Under the pieces are notes generated by a model. It made no database searches and had not been told where the DNA came from. It saw only the letters and a program-made list of their open reading frames with translations. A program made the position numbers and the translations under genes. 64,000 bases of DNA, taken from contig JACRNV010000028.1 of assembly GCA_016214785.1 (NCBI GenBank), forward strand, positions 3,445-67,444, in the 5' to 3' direction. The DNA comes from Methanobacteriota archaeon (GTDB lineage Archaea > Thermoplasmatota > Thermoplasmata > SG8-5 > JACRNV01). The number at the start of each line of letters is the position of its first letter. The stretch's first letter is position 1. Shown piece after piece: positions 456 through 19,835 of this stretch.

Positions 456-2777
456 ATGGCCGCTGTAAAGTTCGTCGGCAGGTCGGTCGAGCTGGCCGCG
501 CTCAAGGCCCATCTCGACGCCGCGCGCAAGGGGGGGAGCAGGTTCGCGCTCGTCTCGGGGGAGGCGGGCGCGGGGAAGGCCCGGCTCGTCGAGGAGCTCG
601 TGGCCAAGCACGCGAAAGGGCTCATCGTCGCCAAGCACTTCACGCTCGAGAGGGAGCGCCGCGTGCCCTTCTCGGCCTTTGCCGACATCATCGCGCAGCT
701 CTCCAGGGCCGGGCACGCGCCCGGCGACGCGGTCAGGGGGCTGAGCGGGGACGGGCGGCGCTCGTCCGAGTCGCTCTCGAAGGAGCGGGACCGCCTCTTC
801 AGGGGCGTGCAGGAGTTCTTCGAGGGGCTGCCCGCATCCATTATTTTCATGGCTGACATGAACAACCTCGACGACGGCTCCACGGCCATGTTCCAGTACC
901 TCGCATCGAACATGAAGGGCGGGAAGATGCTATTCGCCGGCACGTACGCCCCCGACATGCTCGAGGACCCGACGGGCGCGATGCACCCGCTCGCCGAGGC
1001 CCTGGCCTCCATCATGGTCGAGGGGAAGGTCGCCACGCTGCCGCTGGACAGGATGTCCAGGGACGATGTGTCCAAGCTCACCGCGGCCAGGCTCGACGTG
1101 AAGTCCGTGCCGGCCAGCTTCCTGGAGGTCGTATGGAAGGTCACAGAGGGCAACCCGCTGTACGTCGTCGAGACGCTCGACGCCCTCGTGGAGCAGGGGC
1201 TCGACGTTGCCCTGAAGGACTGGGCGCGGAAGTTCGACCCTTCCAGGACGCCGATCCCGGCGAGCATCAAGGACGCCATCTCGGCGAGGTTCTCCAAGCT
1301 CGACGACAGGGAGCGCGCGGTCCTCCGGACGGCTGCGGTAATGGGGGCGGAGTTCAGGGCCGGACCGCTGCTGGAGGTGTCGGGCCTTCCGAAGGACGAT
1401 TTGCAGCAGGTCATGCAGTCGCTGGTCAGCCACAAGTTCGTCTACGAGGTCACCGAGGCAGCCGAGGAGACGTACCGGTTCGAGCATTCGCAGGTCAGGG
1501 ACATCGTGTGCGAGAGCGTCGGCGCAGACGCCAAGGGTTTGCACGGCAAGATTGCGCCTGTCCTCGAGCGGCTCGCGGGGAGGAGGCCGTTCGACGACGC
1601 GTACAGCCTCGCGTACCACTTCGACCTCGCGGACATCCACGACAAGGCTGCGATGTACGGCCTCATGGCCGGGCAGAAGGCCTTCGGGGTGAGCGCCGCC
1701 AGCGAGGGCCTGCGCTACGCCGAGGCGGGGCTGAGGCACGTGAAGCTCGTCGAGCCTTCGAAGAACAACACCTTCCTGGAGCTCAGCCTGCGCAAGCTCG
1801 CCGGCGACCTCAGGTTCCACCTCGGCGACTGGGACGCCTCGCTGAGGGACCTGGACACCGCCTTCCACCTTGCGGAGAAGGTAGTCTCCCCCGAGATGAT
1901 GTCCGCGGCCTCTTCGAGCATGGGGGACTTGCAGCGGTTCAGGGGCAACTATGAGGATGCCGAGAGAAACTTCGCGCGCGCCCTCGACATCGCGGAGGGC
2001 GCGGAGGATGCCCGTGGCAAGGCCATGGCCCTGAGAGGGCTCGGGTACTGCGCGTGGCGCACCGGCGACTACGGCGGGGCCGAGCGCAGGTTCTCCGAGT
2101 GCGTGCCCGTGGCCGAGAAGCTCGGCGACATGGCGCTGAAGGGCTCGCTCCTCCTCGAGATGGGGAACGTCCACACGTCGCGCGGGGACCTTGACGAGGC
2201 CGAGCGCAGCTACAAGTCGAGCATCGAGTTCACGGAGAAGGCCGGCGCGTTCTACGACATGGCCAGGGCGTACAACAACATCGGCGACATCTACCTCCAG
2301 CGCGAGAGGTGGGAAGAGGCGATAGGATATTTCGAGAAGTGCGCGGGCCTGGCCGATCGCCTGGGCAACAGGGACATGCTGGGGTGGGCGCACTTCAACC
2401 TCGGCGAGGCCTACGCCAAGAAGGGCGAGCTGGACAAGGCCGAGAAGGAGTGCCTCCTCGCGCTCGAGATACTGGCGAGGATGGACGACATGGTCGGCAT
2501 GGCCGGCATCTACAAGAACCTCGGCATCGTCAACAGGTTCAGGAAGGACTGGGACAAGTCCGAGGCGATGTTCAGGAAGAGCGCGGACATGGAGGAGGAG
2601 ATGAAGACCCCGCACCCGCTCGCAGAGACCCTCATAGAGTGGGGCGCCATGCGCATCGAAAGGGGCGACAAGGGCGGCGCCGCCGAGATACTGCGCAAGG
2701 CGGAGGACATCGCAGCCTCTATAAAGGCCGAGAAGCTCCTAGAGAGGGCACGCGCGGCCCTGAAGAAGGTCGGGTGA
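456..2777 (+). CDS. STAND-type P-loop NTPase (AAA_16/MalT-like N-terminus) with a long C-terminal TPR-repeat array, 773 aa. No HTH is evident.
   Basis: Walker A is SGEAGAGKARLV and Walker B is IIFMADMNNLDD. The C-terminal about 300 aa is made of repeated TPR-like units (e.g. ALRGLGYCAWRTGDYGGAERRF, MARAYNNIGDIYLQRERWEEAIGYF, NLGEAYAKKGELDKAEKECLLALEI). An RBS-like gggtg lies upstream of the ATG. Confidence 0.75.
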   Translation: MAAVKFVGRSVELAALKAHLDAARKGGSRFALVSGEAGAGKARLVEELVAKHAKGLIVAKHFTLERERRVPFSAFADIIAQLSRAGHAPGDAVRGLSGDGRRSSESLSKERDRLFRGVQEFFEGLPASIIFMADMNNLDDGSTAMFQYLASNMKGGKMLFAGTYAPDMLEDPTGAMHPLAEALASIMVEGKVATLPLDRMSRDDVSKLTAARLDVKSVPASFLEVVWKVTEGNPLYVVETLDALVEQGLDVALKDWARKFDPSRTPIPASIKDAISARFSKLDDRERAVLRTAAVMGAEFRAGPLLEVSGLPKDDLQQVMQSLVSHKFVYEVTEAAEETYRFEHSQVRDIVCESVGADAKGLHGKIAPVLERLAGRRPFDDAYSLAYHFDLADIHDKAAMYGLMAGQKAFGVSAASEGLRYAEAGLRHVKLVEPSKNNTFLELSLRKLAGDLRFHLGDWDASLRDLDTAFHLAEKVVSPEMMSAASSSMGDLQRFRGNYEDAERNFARALDIAEGAEDARGKAMALRGLGYCAWRTGDYGGAERRFSECVPVAEKLGDMALKGSLLLEMGNVHTSRGDLDEAERSYKSSIEFTEKAGAFYDMARAYNNIGDIYLQRERWEEAIGYFEKCAGLADRLGNRDMLGWAHFNLGEAYAKKGELDKAEKECLLALEILARMDDMVGMAGIYKNLGIVNRFRKDWDKSEAMFRKSADMEEEMKTPHPLAETLIEWGAMRIERGDKGGAAEILRKAEDIAASIKAEKLLERARAALKKVG

Positions 2778-2818
2778 TCTCAACGACGTCCGAGATAAGC
2801 CGGAAGGTGCAGAACATC

Positions 2819-3028
2819 ATGGCGCGCGAGATGGGGCACCTCGGCAAGTTCATAGTCCAGAAGCAGTGCAAGGACATCGGCATGGACCCCGAGGAGATTG
2901 ACGAGAAGCGCGTCCCCGAGCTCGCGAGGGCCCTGGGCAAGGTCATGCTCACCTTCGGGGGCGAGGAGAAGGCGCGCAGGATCGAGCAGGAGATCCGCAG
3001 GCTGGGAAAGAGCGAGCCGGTCCCCTGA
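2819..3028 (+). CDS. Small hypothetical protein of 69 aa, MAREMGHLGKFIVQKQCKDIGMDPEEIDEKRVPELARALGKVMLTFGGEEKARRIEQEIRRLGKSEPVP, lying 41 nt downstream of the NTPase.
   Basis: The ATG at 2819 is preceded by ggaaggtg (RBS) at a 9-nt spacing. The ORF is in the same orientation as the upstream NTPase and is separated from it by 41 nt. I recognise no family. Confidence 0.45.
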   Translation: MAREMGHLGKFIVQKQCKDIGMDPEEIDEKRVPELARALGKVMLTFGGEEKARRIEQEIRRLGKSEPVP

Positions 3029-3360: not shown

Positions 3361-5340
3361 ATGGACTACGGCGAGGCTGTCCGCTACCTGTACGATTTGC
3401 AGTACCTGGGAGTCAAGTTCGGGCTCGAGAACACGGCCGAGCTGCTCTTTCGCCTCGGCGGCCCGCACACCAGGTACAAGACCGTGCATGTCGCAGGCAC
3501 GAACGGCAAGGGCTCGGTCTGCGCGCTCGTCTCCTCGGTGCTCACAGCCGCGGGATACCGGACGGGCTTGTACACATCCCCGCATCTGATAGATTTCACA
3601 GAGCGCGTCAAGGTCGACGGCAAGGCCGCTGCCAGGGAGGATATCGCCCGACTCACCGCGGAGATTATCCCGCACCTGGAGGCGATGCGCAAGTCCCCCG
3701 AGGAAAGGCTCTGCACGTTCTTCGAGGCGACGACGGCCCTGGCGTTCAAGCATTTCGAAAATGAGGGCGTGGATGTCGCCGTCATGGAGACGGGGATGGG
3801 CGGGAGGCTCGATTCAACCAACGTCATCGTCCCGGAGGCCTCGGTCATTACCCGCCTCGGCATGGACCACATGAAATACCTCGGGGGTACGCTTGCGAAG
3901 ATAGCGCGCGAGAAGGCAGGCATAATCAAGCCCGGCGTCCCGGTCGTCAGCGCCGCGCAGGAGGGCGACGCCCTGCACGTCATTCGGCAAACCGCCGCGG
4001 AGCGAGGGTCGAAGCTTCGCGTCGAAGGGATTGATTTCCATTGCTCGCGCAAATCCTTTGGCATCGGAGGGCAGCGCCTTTCGTACAGGGGTTCGAGGGG
4101 GAGGCCGTTCGATGTCGATATCTCCCTGCTCGGCAAGTTCCAGGTCGAGAACGCCGGGCTGGCGCTGTGCGCCATCGAAGTTCTAAGAGAGCGGGGATTC
4201 GGCATTCCGGACGGCGCGATCCGCAAGGGCATGAAAGGCGCCAGGTGGCCCGCCCGCCTGCAGGTTGTCAGAAAGAATCCGCTCGTCGTCGTGGATGGCA
4301 TGCACAACCCCAACGCCGCTCAGGCGGTGGCCGACAGCTGGGGCGAGGTCTTCGGGAAGCGGAAAGTGAGACTCGTCCTCGGCATAATGGCAGACAAGGA
4401 CTACCCGAGGACGGCCAGCACAGTCTCGTCGAAGGCGAGCATGACGATAGCCACCGCCCCGGCGTTCCAGCGCGCGCTCCCGGCGGACAGGCTGGCGAGG
4501 GACATAGGCGCCGCAGAATATTACGATATCCCAGCGGATGCGATAGTCTCCGCCATCCGCGGGGCCGGGGATTCAAGCGCCGTCCTCATCGCGGGCTCGC
4601 TCTACCTTGCCGGCGAAGCGCTCATGTTCCTGGGGGATGCACCGCCGGACTCGGTCGACGTCTTCGAGCGCCTGCAGAAAGAATATTCGATCGGCGCGTT
4701 CCCCGGCCACGACGTCGGCGGGAACGAGGCCGTCGAGCCCGGCGGGCGCGAGCCGTTCCATGTTTTGATTTCAACGATACTCTCCCACCGGACCAGGGAC
4801 GAGAACACGCACAGGGCGTCGTCGGCGCTCCTCGCCAGGTACGGGACGCCCGAATCGCTCGCGAAGGCGCCCGTCGCGGAGGTTGAGCGGCTGGTGCGCC
4901 CTTCCGGGTTCTACAGGATGAAGGCCCGCTATGTCAAGGCGGCCGCCAAAGCCGTCGTCGATGACTTTGGCGGCAATGTCCCGCGCGACATCGGGTCGCT
5001 GATGGCCATCCCCGCCGTCGGGCGCAAGACCGCCAACTGCGTGCTTGTCTACGGCTTTGGCATACCGGCGATTCCCGTGGACGTGCATGTGCACAGGGTC
5101 TCGAACAGGCTCGGCCTCGTCAAAACGAAAACGCCCGACGATACAGAAACCATCCTAGCAACCGTCGTGCCAAAGTCCCTCTGGATAGACATCAACAGGC
5201 TCCTCGTGCGCCACGGCCAGGAAGTCTGCCAGCCTCGGAGGCCGCGCTGCCCGAAGTGCGTGCTGAGGGGCGTATGCATGCTTTGGCGGAGGGAATCTCT
5301 CCCCGTTTCGCAGAAGAAGAAGGGAAAGGGAGGCCGGTGA
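3361..5340 (+). CDS. Bifunctional fusion of a FolC-family (Mur-ligase) folylpolyglutamate synthase / dihydrofolate synthase-like N-terminal domain (about aa 1-420) with a C-terminal endonuclease III (Nth, HhH-GPD with [4Fe-4S] cluster loop) domain (about aa 435-659).
   Basis: N-terminal FolC motifs are YLYDLQYLGVKFGLENTAELLFRLGGP, HVAGTNGKGS (P-loop), YTSPHLIDFTERVKVDG and ETGMGGRLDSTN. C-terminal Nth motifs are FHVLISTILSHRTRDE, the HhH-GPD region PAVGRKTANCVLVYGFG...VDVHVHRV, and the cluster loop CQPRRPRCPKCVLRGVC. The frame is continuous with no stop. There is an internal in-frame ATG at 4624 at the domain junction. Confidence 0.7.
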   Translation: MDYGEAVRYLYDLQYLGVKFGLENTAELLFRLGGPHTRYKTVHVAGTNGKGSVCALVSSVLTAAGYRTGLYTSPHLIDFTERVKVDGKAAAREDIARLTAEIIPHLEAMRKSPEERLCTFFEATTALAFKHFENEGVDVAVMETGMGGRLDSTNVIVPEASVITRLGMDHMKYLGGTLAKIAREKAGIIKPGVPVVSAAQEGDALHVIRQTAAERGSKLRVEGIDFHCSRKSFGIGGQRLSYRGSRGRPFDVDISLLGKFQVENAGLALCAIEVLRERGFGIPDGAIRKGMKGARWPARLQVVRKNPLVVVDGMHNPNAAQAVADSWGEVFGKRKVRLVLGIMADKDYPRTASTVSSKASMTIATAPAFQRALPADRLARDIGAAEYYDIPADAIVSAIRGAGDSSAVLIAGSLYLAGEALMFLGDAPPDSVDVFERLQKEYSIGAFPGHDVGGNEAVEPGGREPFHVLISTILSHRTRDENTHRASSALLARYGTPESLAKAPVAEVERLVRPSGFYRMKARYVKAAAKAVVDDFGGNVPRDIGSLMAIPAVGRKTANCVLVYGFGIPAIPVDVHVHRVSNRLGLVKTKTPDDTETILATVVPKSLWIDINRLLVRHGQEVCQPRRPRCPKCVLRGVCMLWRRESLPVSQKKKGKGGR

Positions 5341-7504: not shown

Positions 7505-7725
7505 CGGGGGGTATATGGAGATGCAAATATGAAAGTTAGCGCTAATCTCACAAGTGGGCACCTAGAACATATCATTTCTAAGTTCAAAATATGAGAAAAT
7601 GGAGATTGGTTTGTGTGGAATTTCAGGACATTTCCATATATCGATGTCTTTATATATAACAAGTCTTATACCTAATACGACAAATATGTTTACCAACACA
7701 AACGTAGGTAAATGAGGTCGTTGAT

Positions 7726-9138
7726 ATGAGACCACGTCCAGGTGGAATCCCTTCAGGAGAAGACTACTTCCCGAGAAGCGAAGAAGCTGAGCTCTGGCGA
7801 CGCATAGAGGAAAATTCCGCAATCCTTATTGCGCCAAGACGTTCTGGAAAGAGTACAATGCTCAACCACATGAAGGAGAAACCTGCGTCGAATTGGCAGG
7901 TTTATAATATCTTTTGTGAGGATATCGATAAAGAAGAGCAGATACGAATGAAGCTTGCATCCGTTCTCGTGAATTCTTCTAAAAAATCCGGAAATGTTCT
8001 AATAATCCTGGACGAGTTCCAAACTATGATTGTGCGTATGGCTAAAGGCAAGAATAGCACGAGGAAGATGAGGGAACTAGTCCGTGCTCTTCCTAAATTG
8101 AAATCACTTTCCGCTCCTGAAAAAAAAATCAGATTCGTGTACGCTGGTTCGAAAAGTTTTGATCTGGTCGCAAGGAAATATAATCTCGATGACTCATTTA
8201 AGGATTTACCGAGAATAATCCTCGCTCCACTATCCCGAGCCGATGCACTACGATACCTGACAAAGGTTCTGGGTGACGCGGGTGTTACTAATAAAAATGA
8301 GATTCCCCAATGGATATATCGTGAAGTGGGGTGTGGGTTTCTTTACTTCCTTGCGATACTCGCGGATAAAGCGATAGGTGCTCATGTGGATGGAACGGAA
8401 TTGACAGATGATGTGCTGGAAGAGCTCTATGAAAAATGTATTACCGGCGCAGTAGGTCGAGCCTATTTTCAGCACAACCATGAAGTATTGAAAATCTATA
8501 AAGAATTGGGTGGCGAGAAATATTTCGAAGCGGCTGAAGCAATCCTAGGGTACACGGCCACGCACTCGAAAATATCTCAGTCCACTGCCAATGAATTATT
8601 TAAGTTGCATTATCCGCACGCGAAGGATTGGCTATTTCAACAGCTCATGCTGGATCTTGAAAGTGATTTCTATCTTCGGTTAAAGGCCAAAGGAAATTAT
8701 GAATTCCAGGTGCACATTTTAGGAGACTGGTGGGGGAGGTATTATCCCTCAATGAGCGCGAAGGTCCTTGATGTGCTTCTCATCTGGCGTCCGAGTGGGA
8801 TTTTAATTTCCCATTTGCCATGTCCAGGTGGGGGGCTAAAGGGTGCTGATCAATCTGCGGCCCAACTCACCGCGACATACCAGGGACTGCGCAGTATAGA
8901 GTTCGAAGCTCCTGCGATCCAAGACCCTATGGGAAGAGGGACGTTCGTATTCCTGGAGAAAATGAAATATCTGCTTGTATGTAGAATAAATGGCAAGCCT
9001 ACTCGAAGGCTTGATTCGAAAATGAGGGACGCACTTAAAGGAATAAGTAAGCGTTATCCAAAGATGGATTGGGATGGAGATCGTGCTGTCTTTGACGGCA
9101 TTGAGGCATTTCTAAAGGAGCTATGTGGTGAGCATTAG
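7726..9138 (+). CDS. P-loop NTPase of the 'archaeal ATPase' (PF01637-like, AAA+/STAND) family, 470 aa, with an uncharacterised C-terminal half.
   Basis: The N-terminus FPRSEEAELWRRIEENSAILIAPRRSGKSTML carries Walker A and VLIILDEFQ is Walker B. The RBS is gaggt, 8 nt upstream of the ATG. Confidence 0.65.
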   Translation: MRPRPGGIPSGEDYFPRSEEAELWRRIEENSAILIAPRRSGKSTMLNHMKEKPASNWQVYNIFCEDIDKEEQIRMKLASVLVNSSKKSGNVLIILDEFQTMIVRMAKGKNSTRKMRELVRALPKLKSLSAPEKKIRFVYAGSKSFDLVARKYNLDDSFKDLPRIILAPLSRADALRYLTKVLGDAGVTNKNEIPQWIYREVGCGFLYFLAILADKAIGAHVDGTELTDDVLEELYEKCITGAVGRAYFQHNHEVLKIYKELGGEKYFEAAEAILGYTATHSKISQSTANELFKLHYPHAKDWLFQQLMLDLESDFYLRLKAKGNYEFQVHILGDWWGRYYPSMSAKVLDVLLIWRPSGILISHLPCPGGGLKGADQSAAQLTATYQGLRSIEFEAPAIQDPMGRGTFVFLEKMKYLLVCRINGKPTRRLDSKMRDALKGISKRYPKMDWDGDRAVFDGIEAFLKELCGEH

Positions 9139-9155
9139 CCGATGGAGGGATTGCA

Positions 9156-11477
9156 ATGGAAAAATCAAGAGAAATCGTAACCGCCATGAAGTGGGGCCCC
9201 GGGCAGGACGCCTTGTCCGCCAAAGCACGAGCAAGTCTCTTTGTGGGAAAAAGTAGAAAAGCACTCCTTGAAAAGTTTTTATTGGAATTAAAAGAATCGG
9301 CAAAGAGCAGAAGCATACAACACTATCTCGTTATAGGAACACGCGGAATGGGGAAATCGTTCTTCCTGTCAATCCTCTACGACAAGGTAAAAGAAGGGCA
9401 TGCTGGCGACGTGTGGGTTCCCATCAAAACCATGGAGAACGAGGATCAAATTACGAGCGCGCAGGCATTCATGGCTTCGATTATGAGATATCTGGGCAAC
9501 ACTCCTTTGAGCGGGGCTGTGGAACTCGCAAATGACATCCACAGAATAAAAGACGAGAATACTGCGGTTCAGCAGGCGACCGAACAGTTAGAGGAACTGT
9601 GCAAGAAAAATAAAAAAAGGATTTTGCTCCTAGTAAACAATTTCGACGAGATATATGAGAATATGTTCAAGGATACATCTAAGGCCGCGCTACGGGGAAT
9701 TCTCCAGCAACATTTCTGGCTCAAACTGATAGGTACAACCCGCAATATTACATTCTTAAAATTACTACAGGAAGAATACGAGGTTGAACTTTTCGGACAA
9801 CTATCTACCGAGGAGCTAGAACAACTCAGCGGGGATGAAGTTATTACGCTTCTCTATAAAATAGCCGAGGTTGAGGGCGATAAGGAAGTTTTAGAGAAAA
9901 TAGGTAGCGCCGAATGGCGCGAACGAAGGGTTAATGCAAAGGCTCTTGCAGAGCTGTGCTGCGGCGCGCCAAGAATGATTTACGTCATGTATCCATTTAT
10001 CGTGGAGAGCCGAACCGAAAGCGGACTGACCGTACTTCACAAGACGCTCGACGATCTAACGACTTACTACGAAGCGCAACGAATGTACCTTTCATCGCAA
10101 GAGCGGGCTGTTTATTCGGTCATCGCAAAATTAAATGGAAGTGCTTCTCCAAGCGAAATCGCGGAGGAGCTCCATATGGACATGAATGTTCTGAGCACTT
10201 ATTTAGCCCGATTGCAGGATAAAGATTACATTGAGAAGGTCCACGCTGACAGCGCAGATGCTCGAATCGTTCGATACCAGATACCAGATAAGATTTATGT
10301 CGTCTGGTATCAGAAGAATTACGGGGCGAAGGACGCGCGGTACAAGTGGCTGGTGGAGTTCTATAAAACAGCGTACAGCGCAGAGGAACTGGAACATGGC
10401 GTGGGCGAGCCGGAGGCTCCAGAGATCGTGAGAGAGAGCAAGCTCCGGGCGCTGTCGGAACTGAAGGCGCAGGTCTCTCAGACGATGATAGTTGAAACCG
10501 TACCAGAAGATAAAGAGTTAAGCGAATGGAACGCTGCCTTAGATAAAGGGATCGAAGCCTACCAGAAAGGAAAATTCAACGATGCTTTGTCAGAATGGAC
10601 AAGAGCCCAGAAAGCATGTGAAATCCTTGTGAAGAAATACCCCGATAATTTAATGTATCAGGAAAAACTGGCAGGATCCTTAAACAATCTAGGCCTCTTG
10701 ATGAATGACATGGGTAGATTTTTAGAATCGCTAAATTATAAAGAACGCGCACTAGCATTGTTCGAAGCATTATTAACCAGAGATCCAACGAACGCACGTT
10801 TTCAATCCTCTGTAGCTATGGCTTTGAACAACCTCGGCAACTTGTTGAGCGACCTCGGGAGACGGGAAGAGTCTTTGAAGCGCTACGAGTCCGCGCTTGA
10901 GATGAGAGAAACTTTATTGAACAGTGATCCAAAAAATATAAACTATCAATCAAGCGTCATAGGAACGACTACGAATCAGGTAGACCTTCTCACTACTATA
11001 GGAAGGCATCGCGATGCCATTAGGACTCTGGACGCGGCCATACGTATAATTCCAGAAAATCACGAATTGCTCCTCCTGCGCTCCTCGGCCAATCTCGCCT
11101 TGCAAAATGATGGGCTCGCAAGGGACGACCTCCGAGCCGCCCTTAATCTTCTCGAAAGCAAAGGCAATGGAGAATTTTTGACCGAGATACACCCTGCGCT
11201 CCTCTCGTACCTGAGGCATGGAACGCCCGGTTTTACCATTGAGGCTATCAAGATTGTCTGCGCGGTATTTGGGACGTCGCTGGAGGATGAGAAGGCAAAG
11301 CCATTGATCCCTTTCAAGATGGCCGCAGAGTTCCTGGCGTCCGACCGCAGTTCAGGCACGCTTTTCAATCTCGACCCGTTGACGCGCGATGCCACATACA
11401 AAGTGCTGCGCGATTCCGGTCATGAAGGGGATATCGAGGCACTGAATTACAAAGGGAAGCGGAAGAAACGGAAATGA
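9156..11477 (+). CDS. STAND-type P-loop NTPase (archaeal-ATPase-like), 773 aa, with a central winged-helix domain and a C-terminal TPR array.
   Basis: Walker A is VIGTRGMGKSFFLS and Walker B is ILLLVNNFDE. The wHTH-like segment is SPSEIAEELHMDMNVLSTYLARLQDKDYIEK. The TPRs include NLGLLMNDMGRFLESLNYKERALALFEALL and NLGNLLSDLGRREESLKRYESALEM. The RBS ggaggg is 6 nt upstream. Confidence 0.65.
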   Translation: MEKSREIVTAMKWGPGQDALSAKARASLFVGKSRKALLEKFLLELKESAKSRSIQHYLVIGTRGMGKSFFLSILYDKVKEGHAGDVWVPIKTMENEDQITSAQAFMASIMRYLGNTPLSGAVELANDIHRIKDENTAVQQATEQLEELCKKNKKRILLLVNNFDEIYENMFKDTSKAALRGILQQHFWLKLIGTTRNITFLKLLQEEYEVELFGQLSTEELEQLSGDEVITLLYKIAEVEGDKEVLEKIGSAEWRERRVNAKALAELCCGAPRMIYVMYPFIVESRTESGLTVLHKTLDDLTTYYEAQRMYLSSQERAVYSVIAKLNGSASPSEIAEELHMDMNVLSTYLARLQDKDYIEKVHADSADARIVRYQIPDKIYVVWYQKNYGAKDARYKWLVEFYKTAYSAEELEHGVGEPEAPEIVRESKLRALSELKAQVSQTMIVETVPEDKELSEWNAALDKGIEAYQKGKFNDALSEWTRAQKACEILVKKYPDNLMYQEKLAGSLNNLGLLMNDMGRFLESLNYKERALALFEALLTRDPTNARFQSSVAMALNNLGNLLSDLGRREESLKRYESALEMRETLLNSDPKNINYQSSVIGTTTNQVDLLTTIGRHRDAIRTLDAAIRIIPENHELLLLRSSANLALQNDGLARDDLRAALNLLESKGNGEFLTEIHPALLSYLRHGTPGFTIEAIKIVCAVFGTSLEDEKAKPLIPFKMAAEFLASDRSSGTLFNLDPLTRDATYKVLRDSGHEGDIEALNYKGKRKKRK

Positions 11478-11493
11478 TCATACTCGACGCTTC

Positions 11494-12078: not shown

Positions 12079-12834
12079 CTATGCCTTCTTCCTCCTCGCT
12101 ATGAGGATCATCCCGATGAGTATCGCGGCGACTGCGACCGCCAGCACTACGCCGTAGAACCAGTCGAAGCCTTCCTGCTTGAGGTAGAAAGTCTTCGCGG
12201 TGTAGATGTCCCCCGAGCCCGGGGATACTACGCCGTCGCCGTCAACGTCCCCCTTGATGACCAGGGTGTGCGCCCCGGCCGGAGGGTTGGCCACTATCCA
12301 GTCGGCGGTTATGTTCGTGCTCTGGCCGGCGGAAATAGAGATCCTCTGCGTATCCACGAGCACATCATCGATATATATTTGGACGGGGAGGCTGTCTATG
12401 TTAATCTTGGAGGGGTTTTCTACCTGGCACGAGACGCTCAGAGGCTGGACGACCTGGATGGTCTTGACCGCGTCGCGCCATTCCGTGCCTTTCGAGACGT
12501 TCACGTAAAGGTCGACCGCGCCCTTGACGCTCGGCGCGGTGACGTTTATCAGCACGGACGTCTCGGTGACGTTCCCCTTAAGGGGCGTGTTCTTGGTCGG
12601 CGTCGCGTTGGTGGTGTTGCCGTTCGTGAAGTACGCCTCGTACTTCCAGTCCGGCCCCTCGGCGCCCACGACCAGTACCTTGTACTCCCCGGACTTGTTC
12701 AGCCCCAGGGCGTTCGGGCCCTCGATGTAGACCCGGATCGTGGCATTGCCGGCCGCATGGGCCGCGCCTGCCTGGAGGAGCGTCATCGACAGGAGCGCAG
12801 CCAGCGCCACCGACGCCAGGAGCCTCCCGCTCAT
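12079..12834 (-). CDS. Secreted, C-terminally membrane-anchored surface protein of 251 aa, extremely rich in N-glycosylation sequons. It is translationally coupled to the upstream AglB-like gene by an ATGA overlap.
   Basis: It has a signal peptide (MSGRLLASVALAALLSMTLLQAGAAHAAG), at least 12 N-x-S/T sequons, and a C-terminal TM helix plus RRKKA. The start ATG at 12834 overlaps the AglB stop TGA at 12831-12833. Confidence 0.65.
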   Translation of the reverse strand: MSGRLLASVALAALLSMTLLQAGAAHAAGNATIRVYIEGPNALGLNKSGEYKVLVVGAEGPDWKYEAYFTNGNTTNATPTKNTPLKGNVTETSVLINVTAPSVKGAVDLYVNVSKGTEWRDAVKTIQVVQPLSVSCQVENPSKINIDSLPVQIYIDDVLVDTQRISISAGQSTNITADWIVANPPAGAHTLVIKGDVDGDGVVSPGSGDIYTAKTFYLKQEGFDWFYGVVLAVAVAAILIGMILIARRKKA

Positions 12835-15800
12835 CCGACCCACCTCCGGCGCTTGGCGATGTAGTAAAGCACGAGCACAATCGCTACCACAATGGCGGCT
12901 GTGCCGATGCCCTGAAGCTGTGCGTCCCACGGCGTCTGCGCCGTGACGAGGTCGCCCTTGACCTCCACCATCTGGACGTCGGCCGACATGAGCGGTACGG
13001 AGACGTCGAGCAGCGAGCGGGCGCCGTCCGGGTCGTCCAGCGACTTGCCGACAAGTTTTACGACCACTCCGGGCTCCGCATCGGCCCTGGCCTTCTTGAG
13101 GGTGAACCGGACCTCCTTGAACTCGCCGCCCTTCATCTGTGCCACAGTGGCCGTCGTGTTGTTAATCGTCCAGCCGACCGAGGGCTCCCACGAGAAGGTC
13201 CAGCCGAACCTTGCCAGCTCCTCCTCGTTCAGGCACGTTACCGAGCAGTTGTCGGGGCCGTTGCCTCCGTTGGTCATCGAGACGCCGAAGGAGACGTTCG
13301 AGCCCGAAACCGTTGGCGGGCTCGGGGAGAGGAAGGTGCTGACAGTGTAGTTGTGGTAGATGGGAACGTCTAGTGTCTTGGTGATGGACGCCGTCGAGCC
13401 GATGAGCTTGGACCTTGCGAGTACGTTGATCGGTGTGTGGTCGGTCTTCGCGTCAGCCGGGATGGTTATGACGGCGCGGACTGGCATGGACTCGCCGGAT
13501 CCTAGGGAGATCTGGCTCAGGTTGAGCTTGACGTCCCAGGTCGGCTCCTGGGATGTGGAAAGTGTGTATGTATCAGGGACGTTTCCCTTGTTGTTGACGT
13601 CAAAGGTGTAGATGGCCTCGCTGCCCTGCACGAATGTCCGCTTCTGGGCGGTGTCCCACACTATCTCGACCCCGTAGGTCTTCTCCTTGGACAGCTCGCT
13701 GCTCAGCCTCGTCGACCGGCTCATCTCGGCGGTGCTGCTCATCGAGTACGGGACCGTAATGCCGCCTTCGAGAACGTCGAGCGTTGCCGCGACTTCGTAC
13801 GTGGCCTGCGGCAGCCAGGTCTCGAAGTACCCGAGGCTGTCGGCGCTCAGCTTTCGCTCGACGCCCAGGAACTTGATGGATATGGACGCGTTGTCCGCCG
13901 GCGTCCCGGCCCCGTAATACAGGTTGCCGGAGAGCTTGAAGGCCTCCGTTGCCGCGAGGGCCAGTTCCGTGCCCTCCCTCGTCAAATTGAACGCTCGCAG
14001 CAGGCCCGCGCGCTCGTCCGGGGAGGCGAGATATGCCACGTAGCTGCCGGGCGCCAGCTCTGTCTGGAAGCTGCCGTTCGCGCTGAGATTGGCCTGCGAC
14101 GATATTCCGCCACCGCCCGAGGCGAAAAGCTGCAGGGCCGCGCTGGCCGGCGCCGCGAGGCCGCCAACGGCGCCTTTGACGGAAGCGTTGACTATGTCGC
14201 GCTGCGCGCGAACCGGGACGAACTGGCTCCCCACGGAGGCCGTTACGTTGTTTGTGACCCCCTTGTAATGGTATTCGCGCTCGACGCTTCCGTCGGTTGA
14301 GTTCTGCTTGAAGTCGCTCGTGAAGTTGTAAGTCTGGCGGGTAGGCAGGTAGAGCTTGAAGTCACCCGTCTCGTTGTCCGTGACGGCCGAGAAGGTCGCG
14401 CCCGTCTTTGCCTCGATGGCGCTTACCGGGACGTTCTTCATCTTGGCGCCCTGGAAATCGACGCTCCCCGTGACGAGCGAAGATTCGTTCAGGGCCACCG
14501 TTACGTTGCCTGCCGTCGGGACGAAGAAGCGCTCGTACCCGGTGACAACCGTACCGTTGGTGCCCGCGACCGCCGTGGCCGTGTAATTCCCGCCCTTGAG
14601 CGAGATCACAGTTTCGCCGAGGGCCGAGAGAGACAGGCTCTCCTCGCCGGTGAACGTATAGTTTGTGATATGTTGCTGGCCCGCCATCGCCGCGCTGACA
14701 TTTACGAGATACCGCATCTCGGCCAGCAAATCGATCATCACGGGCTCTTCGCTGAGGCCGAGCCGCAGCCCAAGGCTGCGCTCCCTGAGCTCGTACACAA
14801 CGGTGTCGCTGACCTTGAAAGACAAAGTGAGGTTATATTCGGCCGGGGGAAGTTCTCCGGAGTACGCATTGCCGATTATCGGCATCTCGTATACCTCCTT
14901 GCTGAACAGCCTCTCGGCCACAACCTTTCCGCCGTCCAGGGTCGTCCCGTCGTTCGTCCTCACACCGCCCGAAACGGATATGCGCCGGGGCGAGAGGTCG
15001 AAATACCAGTACACCGCATTCTCCGGATTGCGAGACATGGGCCGGGTCTCATCCGTATATGTCATTGATGCGTAGCCCGGGGAGTAGGCGGTCATCGTCG
15101 GGTTCTCGCCCAGGTACTTGACGAGGAACCGGCCACTCAGGTCGGTATATATATCTCTCGTGCCTGCCGCATCGACGACCTGGCCATAGCCTGGCAGCCC
15201 CTCTCCCTCGTCGAAGGCGCCGTTCCGGGTCGTGTCGTTGTAGATGATTCCGCCGTATTCCTGGGCGGCGCCGACGTCGACTTCGATTGTCGTGGTGGCC
15301 GCGCTGACTGACACGCGCTGCTTCATGCCGAGCCATATCGCGCCGAGGTCGTCGTTCATGACCGTGACGTTGTACTGCCCGTACGGGAGCAGGGCCGTGA
15401 AGCGGTCCGCCGGGTTGGTTCTGGTGTAGAAAGTGCCGCTCCCCTCTATCTGGACTTTGGCGTCGGGCGATGGCTCGAATGAGCCGCCTGTCAGCAGTCT
15501 CCCGTTCAGCCTGCCCGCTGGCTGCAGGGCAACGTCGATCGAGACTGCGTCGGTGACTCTCAGGTTGCCCAGGTACGCGAACTCCGAGCCGGACACCTCC
15601 CTCGATGCATATACGGAGTAAAAGCCGAAGGGAATCCTGTCTTCCAGCTTGCCAGCCCCGTCGGCGAAGAGCATGACCGACCGCTTCGGATCGTTGAGGT
15701 TCTGGAATGTCACGGACAGATTGGCCGCGGGCGCGCCCTGTATCGTGGCCTGGACCGTGAGCGGCGCTGCCGGATAGACCGTGATGTTAAGCGTGGAGTT

Positions 15801-18800
15801 GGTCAGCTTGCGCACCTCGATCGGCGCCGGGATGCTCCAGTAGTTGCCCGAGGATGCGCGGTAGGTGTAATTCCCGACCACCAGGGAGACGTTGAAGTTT
15901 CCGCTGCCGTCCGTGATGGCCGATTCGACGTTGTGGCCCTGGCTGTCGGTGATGTTCACCAGCGCCTGCCCGATCCCGAAATTGAGCTCGTCCGCGACGT
16001 GGCCCGAGAGGTTCACCGGCGTCGTCCCGATGTTCTTGACGAACCCGGTGTTGCTGTAGGTCACAGACACGGAGTCCTCCGAGGCTATGTTGACGCCGTT
16101 GTACGTGACAATGAGCCGGTAGTTGCCCTGCGCCATGCCTGGTATGGAGTAGTTGCCCGCGCTGTCGGTCTTTGCGGCGTAGCTCATGTTGAACGCAAGC
16201 GCGCCATAGTCCAGGTCGGCGCCGGGGAGCGTGGTCTCATCGGGGTTCCTGTTTCCGTCCCCGTTGCTGTCGATGTAGACGATTCCAGACACGTTCGCGG
16301 GCTCGAGGACCGGGCTGTGGGTGATGATGTAGTCGGGTATGCCGTTCCCGTCCAGGTCGAGCTGCTCGCGCATGGCCTGGTCGTCCCTGATGAACATCTT
16401 CGTGTTGTTGAGCTCGGTGCCGACCATGGTCATCTTCAGCGGCTCTCCGGACGAGACGATTATCGAAACGTTGCCCATGGGCGCAAGGAGCGAGTACCTG
16501 CCATCCGAGTCCGTCAGGACCGAGTCGTGGGGTATCTGGTACATGTCCTGCACGGTCACTCGCAGGCCCTCCACGGGCGGCCCGCCCCTGAGCCTTATCT
16601 GGCCCTGGACGATGGCTCCGTCGTAATACTTCAGCATGTTCACGCCCTGATAAAGGCTGGACTGCGTAGACAGGTCGACGACGCCCTCGGCCTCGCCAGC
16701 CTGTATCTTGGCCTGGAGGGCGACAGCGTCGTCGTAGTTCATGGCCGTCCATGCGTCCGTGTGGTTGCGCACCTGTTCCATCGGGTAGGGGTTGTAGTAT
16801 GCAGTGCGGTGGAATATCCTGAAATTCTTCATCATGTAGCCCGGCATCGCGGGCTGGTTCTGGAGGCTCCCGGAAAGGCCTGGTATGCCCGAGTCGTTCG
16901 ACTGCCCCACGTCGGGGCCCGAGTATCCGATGAAGCACTTGTAGAGCATGGTCTTGTAGAACATGTCGTGGTACACTAGCTTGTAGTCCGTGATTTGAAC
17001 ATCTTTGGGAACGTCGTTGATGTCGTATTCGCCGCCGTACTCTCCGACCCCCTTGATCTCCCAGAAGTCGTAGGGCATGTTCGGGGTCTTTATCCTGTGG
17101 TCGGATAGCTTGGCCGGGGCGTAGAAGATGCCGGTGTTGTCGGCCGAGAACGGGAAGAGCCTGCTGTCGACTGCGAAGTACCTGATGCTCTTGCCGGTGG
17201 CGTCCCTCAGGTCGTGGTACAGGCCTGTTACCTGCGTCTGGTTCATGCTCATTGAGATTATGGCCATGGCCTTCAGGATCCTCGCGTTCTCGTCCTGCAC
17301 CCTCGAGTCGCGCGGCCCGTATATCTCGGGGTGGGCGAGTATCTCGGCCTTGTAGTTCTGCGGGTTGCGGAAGGCGTCGTCCACGGCAGCGGGGTCAATG
17401 TTGTATTTAACGAGGACATCCCTCACTCCGGGGCTGAATGCCATGTCCTTCTTCTCGGTGTACAGCGGAGCGTACCAGTCTCCCTGCAGTAATCTCATGC
17501 AGAACAGGGATATCGCGTTGGACTCGTTCTGCGCCATCAGGAAATTGCCCGCGACGTTGTGCCCGCCAAGGAAGTTGTCCGCGACCGTGGGATGCTCCCC
17601 CTGGTTGATGACCTCGAACCCGTAGTCCCACCAGCTTATGAACGCAGGTCGCTCAGAGAACGGATATGTGCCGTTGTCCTGCGTGGCGAGCCAGCGGTAG
17701 GCAGAAGGCCAGTATCGATTGTTGAGCGGCATAGAGTAACCGTGCCCTCCGAGGTACCACGTGGACCCGTTAACTTCGTCGTATGTGGCCGATGCCGTGA
17801 ATGAGGGCATGACCTGGTAAAGCCTCTTGTCGTAATCGGTCTTGACCTCGTAAGGCATGCCGCCGTCCAGCCCTGCCCAAACATTGGGGACGACGACCAT
17901 GAACGCAAGGAAGAGGACGCCAGCCACCACCCGCACGCGCGTTTCCCTCATTATGAAGAACAGGACGCCCAGATAGAACGCCGTTATGACCGGCACCCAT
18001 GCGTGGTCCACCGTGCGCTTGAAGCCGGAATAGTAGGCGATGTAGAGGGCCAGCGCCACCAGCAGCGGTATCATCGCCGCCAGGTAGTACCTGTCCTTTG
18101 CCCTGAGTCCGTAGGTGTACAGCATGAAGAGGATCACCAATACCGCGCTGACGCCGAGCGCGACCGGCGCGAGGTTGTTGAGGTAGTAGTACCCGGCGAC
18201 CGCGCCAGCGATGGCTAAGCCCATTGCGAGCAGCGCCACCATTATCCCACTGGTGCCGAAGATGGTCGCGCCCCTGAACCTCGACTGGCGCGATATCTCG
18301 CCCTTCAGGTCGAGCTTGTCCAGGAGCATCGCGATGACCCATCCGGCCATTATTGCGAAACCGGGCGCGGCGTTGAACATGAAGCGGGCGGATATCACGG
18401 CCATGTATATCGAGAATATCATGAGGAGGATGATGAAGATGAAGTCCGGCTTGAGCTTCTTCGGCAGCTGGTAGAGGCCGAGGCCCAATCCCGCGATGGA
18501 GAGCCAGAACGTGATGAGGCCGAACGAGGTGGCGAGGTTGCTGAAGGGCGGAGCCTGCGCCTCGGCGATGGTCTCGTACTGCTTGCTCGTGATGAAGTAG
18601 CCGCTCGCGCTCGCAATCTTGTCGACGAGCGAGCCGTACAATGTCGGGCTGGCCACGAAAATCGCCGCGACGGCGATGACTGCCAGCAGGGCCATGGAAG
18701 CAAGGACCAATGTCCAGGGGTATTTCCGGGTGAGCATCAGGATTGCGGCTATCCCGGTCGTGCCCAGGTAAATGTACCCGGGCAGGTCCCACCACCCGGC

Positions 18801-19835
18801 AACGAGGCCGGCTATATGGTAATACGGGAATGCCAGAAGCAGCGGTAGGGCGAAAATCATCGTATAGATGACCATTAGGCCCAGTATCTCGCGGTTACGC
18901 AACCTGTTCATCAGCACCTGTACCAGCAGATAGGCGGTCAGGATGACATAAGCGTAGATGAAACCGGTCCATGTGAACATGACGGCGAGGAAACAGAAGC
19001 CGCCCATCATGGAATACAGCACGGAACTCCTATTCTCCTTGAAGAAGTCCCTGATGCCGCCAAGAGCCTCGCGCGGCTTGCCCCACGAAGGCACGTAGTC
19101 CCTCTCACCCAGCAGCTTCAGAGCCCTGAGCAGGAAGTAGAACCCCATCATGATCATGAGGAGAGCGAGCGCGTCGTGGTCGGCGTCGCTCAGGACGCTC
19201 CTCTGGAGGTGGCCGGGGCTGAGGGCAAGCAGGAACGCGCCTATGAGGCCCGCCTTCTTGCCGAAGCTCTCCTTCCCGATAAGGTAGGTCGGGAATATCG
19301 TCAGCGCGCCGGCTATGGCAGTGGAGAAGAGGAACGACCACCAGATTGCCACGACATAGTCTCCGCCGAAGAAGGGGGTGAGCATGTAGCCTGCGATTAC
19401 AGTCGTGAAGGGGTACATCGGGGGCCTGGGGTTAACGCCGCTCAGCGGGTAGCTGAGCATCCCGTCCCGGTGCAGGTAATTGCCCGTCTCGTAAGTGTAT
19501 CGGATCGTCCAGTGGTAGTAATAAGAATCGGACCCTCCCGACAGGAGGAACCCGTTCTCGCTCTCTGGCGCTATCCCGAAATACGACCGGATGAAGACGG
19601 CGAGGAGGAAGATGAAGACCAGCGCCACGATGGTGTTCCACTGCTCGGGCCTCAGGCCAATCTTCACCTTGCGGCCCAGCCTCTTGCCCAGGGACTCCCC
19701 TGCGGGGGATGCCCTGGATTGGGCCGGGCGCTCATCGGGCCGGGCGGCTCCTTCTGTGGATGCCTCCGGCTCTTCATCGGTGTCCTTACGCAGGTCAAAG
19801 CTCATCAGGTTCACCGTTTGGGTGCCCGTGCTCAT
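12831..19835 (-). CDS. aglB: Giant AglB/STT3-family oligosaccharyltransferase paralog, 2334 aa if the first ATG is used. It has a polytopic N-terminal membrane domain with the WWDYG catalytic motif, followed by about 1500 aa of beta-sandwich/Ig-like repeats and a C-terminal TM anchor. The likelier start is the second ATG at 19805.
   Basis: FISWWDYGFEVINQGEHP is the STT3 WWDYG motif. Many predicted TM helices lie within about aa 60-700. The C-terminus is ...GIGTAAIVVAIVLVLYYIAKRRRWVG. A TATA-like catatata sits 14 nt upstream of the first ATG, and GGTGA 6 nt upstream of the second ATG (MSFDLRK) favours a start at 19805. Confidence 0.75.
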   Translation of the reverse strand: MSTGTQTVNLMSFDLRKDTDEEPEASTEGAARPDERPAQSRASPAGESLGKRLGRKVKIGLRPEQWNTIVALVFIFLLAVFIRSYFGIAPESENGFLLSGGSDSYYYHWTIRYTYETGNYLHRDGMLSYPLSGVNPRPPMYPFTTVIAGYMLTPFFGGDYVVAIWWSFLFSTAIAGALTIFPTYLIGKESFGKKAGLIGAFLLALSPGHLQRSVLSDADHDALALLMIMMGFYFLLRALKLLGERDYVPSWGKPREALGGIRDFFKENRSSVLYSMMGGFCFLAVMFTWTGFIYAYVILTAYLLVQVLMNRLRNREILGLMVIYTMIFALPLLLAFPYYHIAGLVAGWWDLPGYIYLGTTGIAAILMLTRKYPWTLVLASMALLAVIAVAAIFVASPTLYGSLVDKIASASGYFITSKQYETIAEAQAPPFSNLATSFGLITFWLSIAGLGLGLYQLPKKLKPDFIFIILLMIFSIYMAVISARFMFNAAPGFAIMAGWVIAMLLDKLDLKGEISRQSRFRGATIFGTSGIMVALLAMGLAIAGAVAGYYYLNNLAPVALGVSAVLVILFMLYTYGLRAKDRYYLAAMIPLLVALALYIAYYSGFKRTVDHAWVPVITAFYLGVLFFIMRETRVRVVAGVLFLAFMVVVPNVWAGLDGGMPYEVKTDYDKRLYQVMPSFTASATYDEVNGSTWYLGGHGYSMPLNNRYWPSAYRWLATQDNGTYPFSERPAFISWWDYGFEVINQGEHPTVADNFLGGHNVAGNFLMAQNESNAISLFCMRLLQGDWYAPLYTEKKDMAFSPGVRDVLVKYNIDPAAVDDAFRNPQNYKAEILAHPEIYGPRDSRVQDENARILKAMAIISMSMNQTQVTGLYHDLRDATGKSIRYFAVDSRLFPFSADNTGIFYAPAKLSDHRIKTPNMPYDFWEIKGVGEYGGEYDINDVPKDVQITDYKLVYHDMFYKTMLYKCFIGYSGPDVGQSNDSGIPGLSGSLQNQPAMPGYMMKNFRIFHRTAYYNPYPMEQVRNHTDAWTAMNYDDAVALQAKIQAGEAEGVVDLSTQSSLYQGVNMLKYYDGAIVQGQIRLRGGPPVEGLRVTVQDMYQIPHDSVLTDSDGRYSLLAPMGNVSIIVSSGEPLKMTMVGTELNNTKMFIRDDQAMREQLDLDGNGIPDYIITHSPVLEPANVSGIVYIDSNGDGNRNPDETTLPGADLDYGALAFNMSYAAKTDSAGNYSIPGMAQGNYRLIVTYNGVNIASEDSVSVTYSNTGFVKNIGTTPVNLSGHVADELNFGIGQALVNITDSQGHNVESAITDGSGNFNVSLVVGNYTYRASSGNYWSIPAPIEVRKLTNSTLNITVYPAAPLTVQATIQGAPAANLSVTFQNLNDPKRSVMLFADGAGKLEDRIPFGFYSVYASREVSGSEFAYLGNLRVTDAVSIDVALQPAGRLNGRLLTGGSFEPSPDAKVQIEGSGTFYTRTNPADRFTALLPYGQYNVTVMNDDLGAIWLGMKQRVSVSAATTTIEVDVGAAQEYGGIIYNDTTRNGAFDEGEGLPGYGQVVDAAGTRDIYTDLSGRFLVKYLGENPTMTAYSPGYASMTYTDETRPMSRNPENAVYWYFDLSPRRISVSGGVRTNDGTTLDGGKVVAERLFSKEVYEMPIIGNAYSGELPPAEYNLTLSFKVSDTVVYELRERSLGLRLGLSEEPVMIDLLAEMRYLVNVSAAMAGQQHITNYTFTGEESLSLSALGETVISLKGGNYTATAVAGTNGTVVTGYERFFVPTAGNVTVALNESSLVTGSVDFQGAKMKNVPVSAIEAKTGATFSAVTDNETGDFKLYLPTRQTYNFTSDFKQNSTDGSVEREYHYKGVTNNVTASVGSQFVPVRAQRDIVNASVKGAVGGLAAPASAALQLFASGGGGISSQANLSANGSFQTELAPGSYVAYLASPDERAGLLRAFNLTREGTELALAATEAFKLSGNLYYGAGTPADNASISIKFLGVERKLSADSLGYFETWLPQATYEVAATLDVLEGGITVPYSMSSTAEMSRSTRLSSELSKEKTYGVEIVWDTAQKRTFVQGSEAIYTFDVNNKGNVPDTYTLSTSQEPTWDVKLNLSQISLGSGESMPVRAVITIPADAKTDHTPINVLARSKLIGSTASITKTLDVPIYHNYTVSTFLSPSPPTVSGSNVSFGVSMTNGGNGPDNCSVTCLNEEELARFGWTFSWEPSVGWTINNTTATVAQMKGGEFKEVRFTLKKARADAEPGVVVKLVGKSLDDPDGARSLLDVSVPLMSADVQMVEVKGDLVTAQTPWDAQLQGIGTAAIVVAIVLVLYYIAKRRRWVG

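Follow-up and report, generated by a model that had tools for sequence, protein, structure and literature searches.

What kind of system is encoded by a two-gene, AT-rich island in the genome of a Thermoplasmatota archaeon (GenBank assembly GCA_016214785.1, contig JACRNV010000028.1), and where did it come from? The window that we analyzed, namely the whole stretch of 64,000 nucleotides (nt) from position 3,445 to 67,444 of this contig, contains two co-oriented open reading frames (ORFs) that stand alone in the island: g1 (7726-9138, + strand, 470 residues) and g2 (9156-11477, + strand, 773 residues), whose products are named 'AAA family ATPase' and 'tetratricopeptide repeat protein' in the public record. 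[quoted passage not shown] Their components belong to known superfamilies, i.e. STAND, the ATPase_2/ORC-like AAA+ ATPases, tetratricopeptide repeats (TPR) and longin domains; no description of an obligate paralogous pair of this kind was found in PADLOC or the searchable literature. The name of one STAND clade mentioned in a single paper, 'MNS clade (Npun2340/2341 family)', suggests adjacent paralogues and offers a tentative lead.

Pairing and paralogy of the two NTPases

An exhaustive HMMER search recovered 611 representatives related to g1 at E<=1e-3 and 179 at E<=1e-10; a word-indexed homology search returned only self-matches for g1 and, for g2, relatives at 22-27% identity. At a level of 90% identity each protein is a singleton, and any relative is at most 30% identical. 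Taking one genome per species, we located the corresponding loci with a 12-sequence alignment and scanned them with a hidden Markov model (HMM) of the g1 family and with residues 1-450 of g2, thereby leaving out the TPR array. Over all sets of loci taken together, these and the further ones described below, 70 of 72 loci from many bacterial and archaeal phyla have a g1-like gene that is followed directly downstream and on the same strand by a g2-like gene. Among the close relatives of g1 (E<=1e-50, 37 loci) the g2-like gene is present in 35 of the 36 loci with downstream sequence. Its start lies -104 to +17 nt from the g1-like stop in the species-representative loci, the negative spacings being exaggerated by the start-codon heuristic, and annotated pairs overlap by 4-11 nt. 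The same pair occurs in all 30 independent metagenome loci and beside both retrievable relatives that bear a longin domain, and in the reverse direction a g1-like gene lies upstream of both distant g2 homologues that were examined. A mirror-tree comparison of 58 complete pairs gave distance matrices correlated at r = 0.975, a value matched by none of 2000 permutations. On this evidence the g1-like and g2-like genes constitute a predicted two-gene operon that is strictly paired and co-evolving; the dedicated partner ATPase surmised in the earlier note is recovered throughout the family, and the homologues are clearly not scattered single genes that lack conserved pairing. The family is patchily distributed across both prokaryotic domains, with hosts among the Acidobacteriota, Armatimonadota, Desulfobacterota, Bipolaricaulota, Thermotogota, Nitrospirota, Brocadiaceae and plasmids of Gammaproteobacteria in Bacteria, and among the Methanomicrobiales, Methanosarcinales/ANME-2 and Thermoplasmatota in Archaea.

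The two members of the pair are also related to each other. The N-terminal module of g2 aligns with the g1 family over 323 columns (hhalign probability 97.8%, E 9.6e-13), an alignment that takes in the winged helix and the tryptophan-arginine motif following it. Because of this match the NTPase-lid-winged-helix modules of g1 and g2, which represent the nucleotide-binding oligomerization domain (NOD), are judged from their profiles to be paralogues, one bare and one extended.

Two loci depart from the pairing: at L034 (9641-11134) the gene that comes after a 497-residue g1-like gene codes for an HpaB monooxygenase, and at L118 (7965-9188), on a plasmid of Methylomonas, the g1-like gene stands alone. 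At a further locus (L031, 15254-17454) a degraded second copy of the module, consisting of two g1-like fragments in different frames and then an intact 554-residue g2-like gene devoid of TPR, lies 1.3 kb downstream of an intact pair. ATPases of approximately 370-385 residues (L041-L083), whose matches to the profile of g1 range from 1e-16 to 1e-39, were set aside as a different family, and none of them has a g2-like neighbor.

The features of g1 are as follows:

7726..8220, + strand: g1 residues 1-165, AAA+ P-loop NTPase (Pfam AAA_14, AlphaFold2 (AF2) model, Foldseek)
7831-7857, + strand: g1 Walker A, A36-T44, APRRSGKST (sequence)
8011-8016, + strand: g1 Walker B, D96/E97 in ILDEFQ (sequence)
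8221..8754, + strand: g1 residues 166-343, helical lid and winged helix (AF2 secondary structure), ending in DWWxR (W335, W336)
8755..9135, + strand: g1 residues 344-470, predicted longin-fold domain (two strands, a helix, three strands, two or three helices)

The AF2 model of g1, built on 61 sequences, has a pLDDT of 89.4 and divides into four parts: residues 1-165 form an AAA+ domain, 166-281 a helical lid, 282-343 a winged helix and 344-470 a C-terminal alpha/beta domain. Pfam AAA_14 matches residues 32-148 at 7.4e-9 (36.1 bits against a curated cut-off of 27), the match to AAA-ATPase_like is sub-threshold, and ATPase_2 (PF01637) reaches 16.4 bits against a cut-off of 33.2, above which relatives score with 37.7 and 37.3 bits. 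Across the 61 g1 relatives P37, R38, R39, G41, K42, D96 and S142, as well as Y316 and W336, are invariant, and g1 retains every family-invariant residue. Foldseek searches of the PDB place SSO1545 (2fna, 1.3e-12) and PABY2304 (2qen) at the top, both of which the sequence profile of the g1 family recovers too, followed in a second tier by archaeal ORC2/Cdc6 and then eukaryotic ORC subunits, with about 370 columns aligned. The APRRSGKST and ILDEFQ motifs that the earlier note gave for its 'archaeal ATPase'-type NTPase are present in g1. SSO1545 and PABY2304 are stand-alone ATPase_2 proteins of unknown function that share the AAA+ domain, lid and winged helix with g1, whereas g1 falls below the ATPase_2 cut-off and possesses the DWWxR motif and the longin domain.

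The C-terminal domain of g1 is modeled as a longin fold by virtue of its topology and its structural similarity to longin domains; the Pfam longin and Robl_LC7 models give no sequence-level match. It is rare, being borne by only P0010, P0012 and P0013 among the best 150 g1 relatives, and is a lineage-specific add-on to g1. As modeled, g1 is therefore an ATPase_2/ORC-Cdc6-like AAA+ module joined to a longin domain, and its C-terminal half, in which the earlier note had suspected a novel effector, consists of the lid, the winged helix and a non-catalytic platform domain, and hence holds no hidden effector. Longin and Roadblock platforms such as Sec22b, AP sigma/mu, Mon1-Ccz1 and MglB partner small GTPases, whereas the longin domain of g1 is fused to an AAA+ ATPase; if correctly assigned, this fusion in a Thermoplasmatota archaeon would be a new data point for prokaryotic longin-fold domains.

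The features of g2 are as follows:

9156..10355, + strand: g2 residues 1-400, STAND-type NOD with FVGK, Walker A (G61-S68), helical domain, winged helix and W..Q.R
within 9156..10355, + strand: g2 Walker B region, L157-N162, LLLVNN (alignment)
9636..9638, + strand: g2 N161, codon AAC (alignment columns and codon)
10518..11165, + strand: g2 residues ~455-670, TPR array of about 5-6 repeats (Pfam TPR_12 2.3e-13, TPR_10 3.4e-13)
11166..11477, + strand: g2 residues ~671-773, shortened C-terminal helical domain, then a basic tail (C-terminus alignment)

The NTPase motif of g2 starts 28 residues into the protein, and it displays both the N-terminal hhGRExE-like STAND motif and Walker A (FVGK...GTRGMGKS), with R34, G64, G66 and K67 invariant in the family. 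Pfam detects AAA_16 at residues 34-180 and a MarR/HTH_24-type winged helix at 315-370 (about 312-371 in the domain layout) and TPR at about 460-665, together with weaker matches to the nSTAND1, nSTAND5 and NACHT models. The protein shows the order expected of STAND: NTPase, helical domain with a TGGNPRLV-type motif, winged helix and repeat sensor. The motifs and Pfam domains accordingly agree with the earlier description of g2 as an NTPase with GTRGMGKS and LLLVNNFDE followed by a winged helix and TPR. Comparison of 30 aligned members of the g2 family revealed: 1) the conserved motifs FVGR, GPRGxGKS, LLLV[D/E]N, TGGNPRLV, LLDExTPYY and LPxQQR; 2) Pfam matches to AAA_16 in 30/30, a winged helix in 22/30, TPR in ~22/30, nSTAND1 in 16/30 and ORC-CDC6-like in 15/30; 3) a TPR array that varies in length and is sometimes missing among relatives of 526-1200 residues; and 4) a conserved C-terminal helical domain, present even in the TPR-less Methanoculleus forms of ~552 residues. 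The winged helix corresponds to the MarR_2, HTH_24, TrmB and IclR models and, by sequence, to MarR/ArsR/TrmB-like structures. When the PDB was searched with a profile of the entire g2 family, TPR proteins crowded out other matches; a profile of the NOD alone found no close solved relative and no solved STAND protein detectably near.

Five kb upstream of the cassette lies a native, GC-rich gene (456-2777, GC3, i.e. GC at third codon positions, 0.93) for a STAND protein with AAA_16 and MalT-like TPR. Duplication of this gene as the source of g2 was ruled out, the BLASTP similarity being not significant, and the common length of 773 residues is a coincidence. In the Logan contig an 84-residue gene is called directly after it (small ORF ~2774-3028).

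Composition and borders of the island

The island (7520-11477) has a GC content of 0.459 against 0.601 elsewhere in the window, where no other 4-kb segment is as low in GC. GC3 is 0.43 in g1 and 0.53 in g2, as opposed to 0.78-0.93 in the eleven GC-rich window genes that were compared. Both borders are sharp: on the left GC falls from ~7510-7520, at the start of a divergent DUF1611 gene, and on the right the change comes where g2 terminates, the stop codon of a convergent 186-residue gene being 16 nt away. The AT-richness relative to both flanks that had drawn attention to the locus is thus confirmed, and GC and GC3 differ from the surroundings within the window. Since GC3 (0.43/0.53 versus ~0.85) is foreign, the nearest relatives are at most 30% identical and the hosts span many phyla, we conclude that the two genes reached this genome as a cassette by horizontal transfer. 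No tRNA is present in the window, and the island has no flanking direct or inverted repeats of note. As regards an empty site, the nearest DUF1611 orthologues on usable contigs (L121-L123) are only ~70% identical and lack shared synteny.

Two non-coding features accompany the genes:

7505..7725, + strand: AT-rich tract 5' of the cassette, GC ~0.35 (sequence and GC profile)
9139..9155, + strand: intergenic spacer of 17 nt, with GGAGG at 9144-9148, 7 nt before the g2 ATG

Direct reading of the upstream tract, of which the 164 nt at 7562-7725 (GC ~0.35) had been proposed as an AT-rich promoter, identified an archaeal TATA-like TTTATATA at 7649-7656 and a Shine-Dalgarno-like GAGGT at 7714-7718, 5' of g1. 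The AT-richness of this tract stands, and these elements make it a putative promoter. A scan for bacterial-type promoters and terminators did not exceed shuffle expectation, its sigma-70 part being uninformative for an archaeal host, and nothing convincing in the way of operator-like palindromes was seen at the cassette. The gap between the genes is 17 nt rather than the 18 nt given earlier, and this spacing with its GGAGG suggests co-transcription; elsewhere in the family the reading frames either share 4-11 nt or are separated by 63 nt at most.

A candidate sensor switch and its alternatives

We favor, with slightly less than even confidence, the explanation that the cassette is a mobile heteromeric STAND-type sensor switch serving biological conflict, either in defense or in abortive infection against mobile elements. 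The sensor subunit would be g2, with its STAND module, TPR array and conserved C-terminal helical domain, and g1 would provide a bare paralogue of the NTPase-lid-winged-helix module from the same transcript. Binding of a ligand to the TPR or C-terminal part of g2 would lift autoinhibition, nucleotide exchange would allow g2 and g1 to co-assemble as a hetero-oligomer, and the output would pass through the variable end of g1. In the window this end would be the C-terminal longin domain, acting as a protein- or NTPase-binding platform, and in another subclade it would be an N-terminal adaptor domain of g1 that is linked to a RelA/SpoT-like nucleotide pyrophosphokinase encoded next to it. The physical interaction of g1 with g2, the sensing of a ligand, the output step and the role in defense are all steps that we infer. 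The heteromeric switch is proposed because known STAND proteins are gated by their repeat sensors and multimerize on passing from an ADP-closed to an ATP-open state; for those with TPR sensors, PMC6468293 describes an ADP-bound closed monomer, an ATP-bound multimer and double autoinhibition.

The role tilts towards defense or conflict because of a RelA/SpoT-linked subclade, fusions of a conflict type and the plasmid context in Moraxella. A gene with a RelA_SpoT domain (236-274 residues) lies directly upstream of the pair in 5 of 37 loci and is the sole recurrent third gene; these are exactly the loci in which the g1-like protein has an N-terminal extension of ~100-130 residues. This extension has no Pfam match, and its identity as a second longin domain was rejected (hhalign probability 0.8%). 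One of the RelA_SpoT proteins matches the PADLOC single-gene candidate PDC-S33. Other members of the g1 family carry N-terminal fusions to AbiEi_4, Schlafen/AlbA_2 plus HATPase_c_4, ParA/MinD-like or XRE-HTH domains. The great variability in length of the TPR array is counted as a further signal of this type. Three Moraxella osloensis plasmids bear the pair. On pNP7-2, where the two genes are NP7_RS12395 and NP7_RS12400 with the products WP_100271209.1 and WP_100271210.1, hhalign aligns the partner with the profile of the g2 NOD (probability 100%, E 2.4e-55). The partner on KSH p4 agrees in length and in the block of genes that follows, and RefSeq names it a 'NACHT domain-containing protein'; on pSKB0120-2 the partner is assigned by position and length only. 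On one side of the pair these plasmids encode QatC/QatD, a kinase and insertion sequence (IS) elements, and on the other a dUTPase, PRTase-CE, an ORC-CDC6-like protein and an N6-methylase. On KSH p4 (L119, 7139-8852) an IS5 transposase insertion truncates the 5' end of the g1-like gene and leaves the g2-like gene intact. Since the module sits on plasmids of this cultivable species, the idea is directly testable. A protein of >2000 residues with Pkinase, nSTAND1 and FGE-sulfatase domains is encoded directly downstream of the pair at one locus (L003, 9227-14931), an architecture reported for bacterial conflict systems (PMC8195603).

Several observations weigh against a role in conflict. Among 100 flanking proteins within two genes of the pair at the 37 non-window loci (L002-L040), the neighbors are chiefly metabolic or housekeeping; type I methyltransferases occur at 2 loci and BrxC at 1, so that restriction-modification or BREX genes accompany ~3 of 37. 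In the window the cassette adjoins genes for a FolC-like protein, an epimerase, DUF1611, a CARDB protein and an STT3 glycosyltransferase. By this count of close neighbors a defense-island setting, for which the earlier note had proposed a test, does not seem typical of the pair, the Moraxella plasmids excepted. No system model of PADLOC v2 fits the proteins or their families, which yield weak generic matches to PDC-S01 (1.6e-5), PDC-M28C (1.5e-6), mad8 and the Csa3 winged helix. We found no relatives in IMG/VR or GenBank phages, and a viral origin of the pair was rejected on this ground. Finally, Pfam finds no effector family in g1, g2 or the top families of the 30 g2 members, just as the earlier note had remarked that no effector domain is evident. 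With no effector, ordinary neighborhoods and absence from defense databases, transcriptional regulation, DNA transactions and local decay stay in contention.

If the pair were a transcription-regulatory switch of the MalT or AfsR/SARP type, the TPR of g2 would sense a metabolite or protein and the MarR-like winged helices of both proteins would bind DNA. This is unlikely, although the MarR_2, HTH_24, TrmB and IclR models fit the winged helix in 22/30 g2 members, the pair has no enzymatic effector, some g1-family proteins are fused to XRE or AbiEi HTH domains and the neighborhoods are largely metabolic. Outside the RelA_SpoT subclade no gene or operon is recurrently adjacent, and hence there is no conserved regulatory target; the bare two-gene unit crosses phyla and domains, as a regulator with a regulon of its own would not usually do; and the winged helix is integral to every STAND/ORC module and does not require DNA binding. 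Even as a regulator, the pair would represent a widely transferred, unannotated family. A role in the DNA transactions of a mobile element, in which the pair would be a relic of a plasmid or integrated element and would act as initiators or loaders resembling ORC/Cdc6 or as a helper of the TniB/TnsC kind, is very unlikely. After ATPase_2 proteins g1 most resembles archaeal ORC2/Cdc6 and eukaryotic ORC, including an Orc1/Cdc6 heterodimer on origin DNA, half of the g2 relatives (15/30) have ORC-CDC6-like Pfam matches, and the pair resides on Moraxella plasmids; but integrase, replication, partition and transposase genes are not consistently linked to it, the window offers neither a tRNA target nor flanking repeats, initiators are not characterized by either TPR sensor arrays or RelA/SpoT partners, and the pair is on no viral contig in IMG/VR. 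Paralogous AAA+/winged-helix proteins are indeed shared with Orc1/Cdc6 heterodimers and ORC, a class that acts as hetero-oligomers; g1 and g2 differ from them in being unlinked to origins or replication genes, in the TPR of g2 and in their occurrence in Bacteria too.

Distinct from these is the question whether the cassette of the window, regardless of the role of the family elsewhere, is a decaying and non-functional remnant of transfer, which we hold to be distinctly unlikely. The Walker B acid, D/E followed by N in 29/29 aligned g2 relatives and acidic also in two extra ones (LLLENFD in L124, LLIDNID in L125), is replaced by N161 in g2 of the window, a departure from all 31 relatives compared for which one G-to-A substitution in a GAC codon would account. 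The C-terminal domain of g2 is shortened, with its first ~50 columns missing, both proteins are isolated from their relatives in sequence, and the composition of the island has not been ameliorated. N161 and the shortened domain mean that the window copy is possibly impaired, which also counts against a working sensor switch at this locus. On the other hand, the ORFs of 470 and 773 codons are intact, g1 keeps all family-invariant residues, g2 retains its P-loop and all nine invariant positions, and ribosome-binding motifs and a TATA-like element are present. With N161 and the shortened domain, g2 of the window may be an altered sensor, locked or non-hydrolyzing, or a decaying one.

The proposed sensor switch can be set against known systems. 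With the MalT family and Pyrococcus PH0952 (PMC6468293) g2 shares an FVGR-type motif, P-loop, helical domain, winged helix and TPR, and it would be expected to switch between ADP and ATP while the sensor arm exerts autoinhibition. It differs from them in that neither end bears a DNA-binding domain or any other effector, in its extra conserved C-terminal helical domain, in TPR that are dispensable in some members and in being always accompanied by a paralogous partner gene. The Avs likeness suggested by the earlier note holds in part: the STAND-type layout of g2 stands, and a STAND NTPase with a TPR-like sensor, a patchy distribution and horizontal transfer are common to both. An Avs protein is one polypeptide whose effector, at the N-terminus, is a nuclease, a protease or of the SIR2 type. 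Membership in Avs is contradicted by the lack of such an effector, the obligatory second NTPase gene and the absence of a PADLOC Avs match. Five three-gene variants, recognized from their genes, resemble toxSAS (toxic small alarmone synthetases) of the CapRel type in the RelA_SpoT-domain gene directly upstream of the pair, whereas the window and most loci lack this gene. Plant paired NLRs (nucleotide-binding leucine-rich repeat proteins) furnish an analogy only, being likewise two linked, co-evolving NOD proteins of which one bears a repeat sensor. Plant NLR pairs are arranged head-to-head, with integrated decoys and CC/TIR effectors. Beyond the STAND class they are not known to share homology with g1 and g2.

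Animals, plants, fungi and bacteria all depend centrally on STAND/NLR-type proteins for innate immunity, and the bacterial STAND examples known to us are single polypeptides with a fused effector. If our proposal is correct, an effector-less paralogous NOD pair would point to a heteromeric, sensor/helper-like NLR logic in prokaryotes, and would raise the question of the route by which an effector-less STAND complex signals. A bolder reading, possible but doubtful, is that the pair might be the founding example of a widespread, undescribed prokaryotic immune or conflict sensor made from two co-evolving paralogous NOD proteins; by analogy, and with the same doubt, it might form a 'sensor plus helper' STAND complex with output through swappable helper adaptors (longin, or an adaptor with a RelA/SpoT alarmone synthetase).

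Other genes of the window

A second AT-rich island (28240-31290; GC 0.45, GC3 0.52) consists of a single ORF of 1016 residues with NosD/right-handed beta-helix repeats and is probably another horizontally acquired gene, coding for a surface protein. Intermediate composition (GC 0.52-0.53, GC3 0.63-0.64) characterizes a class I methyltransferase gene (20101-20925) and that of a 974-residue M28 peptidase with a GH130-like region (43250-46174), both of which may be older acquisitions. The 659-residue protein encoded at 3361-5340 joins a FolC/Mur-ligase (Mur_ligase_M, Mur_ligase_C) to a C-terminal HhH-GPD base-excision glycosylase domain, a combination that looks unusual. Finally, a 2334-residue protein (12831-19835, - strand) combines an N-terminal STT3 oligosaccharyltransferase domain with many CarboxypepD_reg/Ig-like repeats, and its gene is adjoined by that of the CARDB surface protein (12079-12930).

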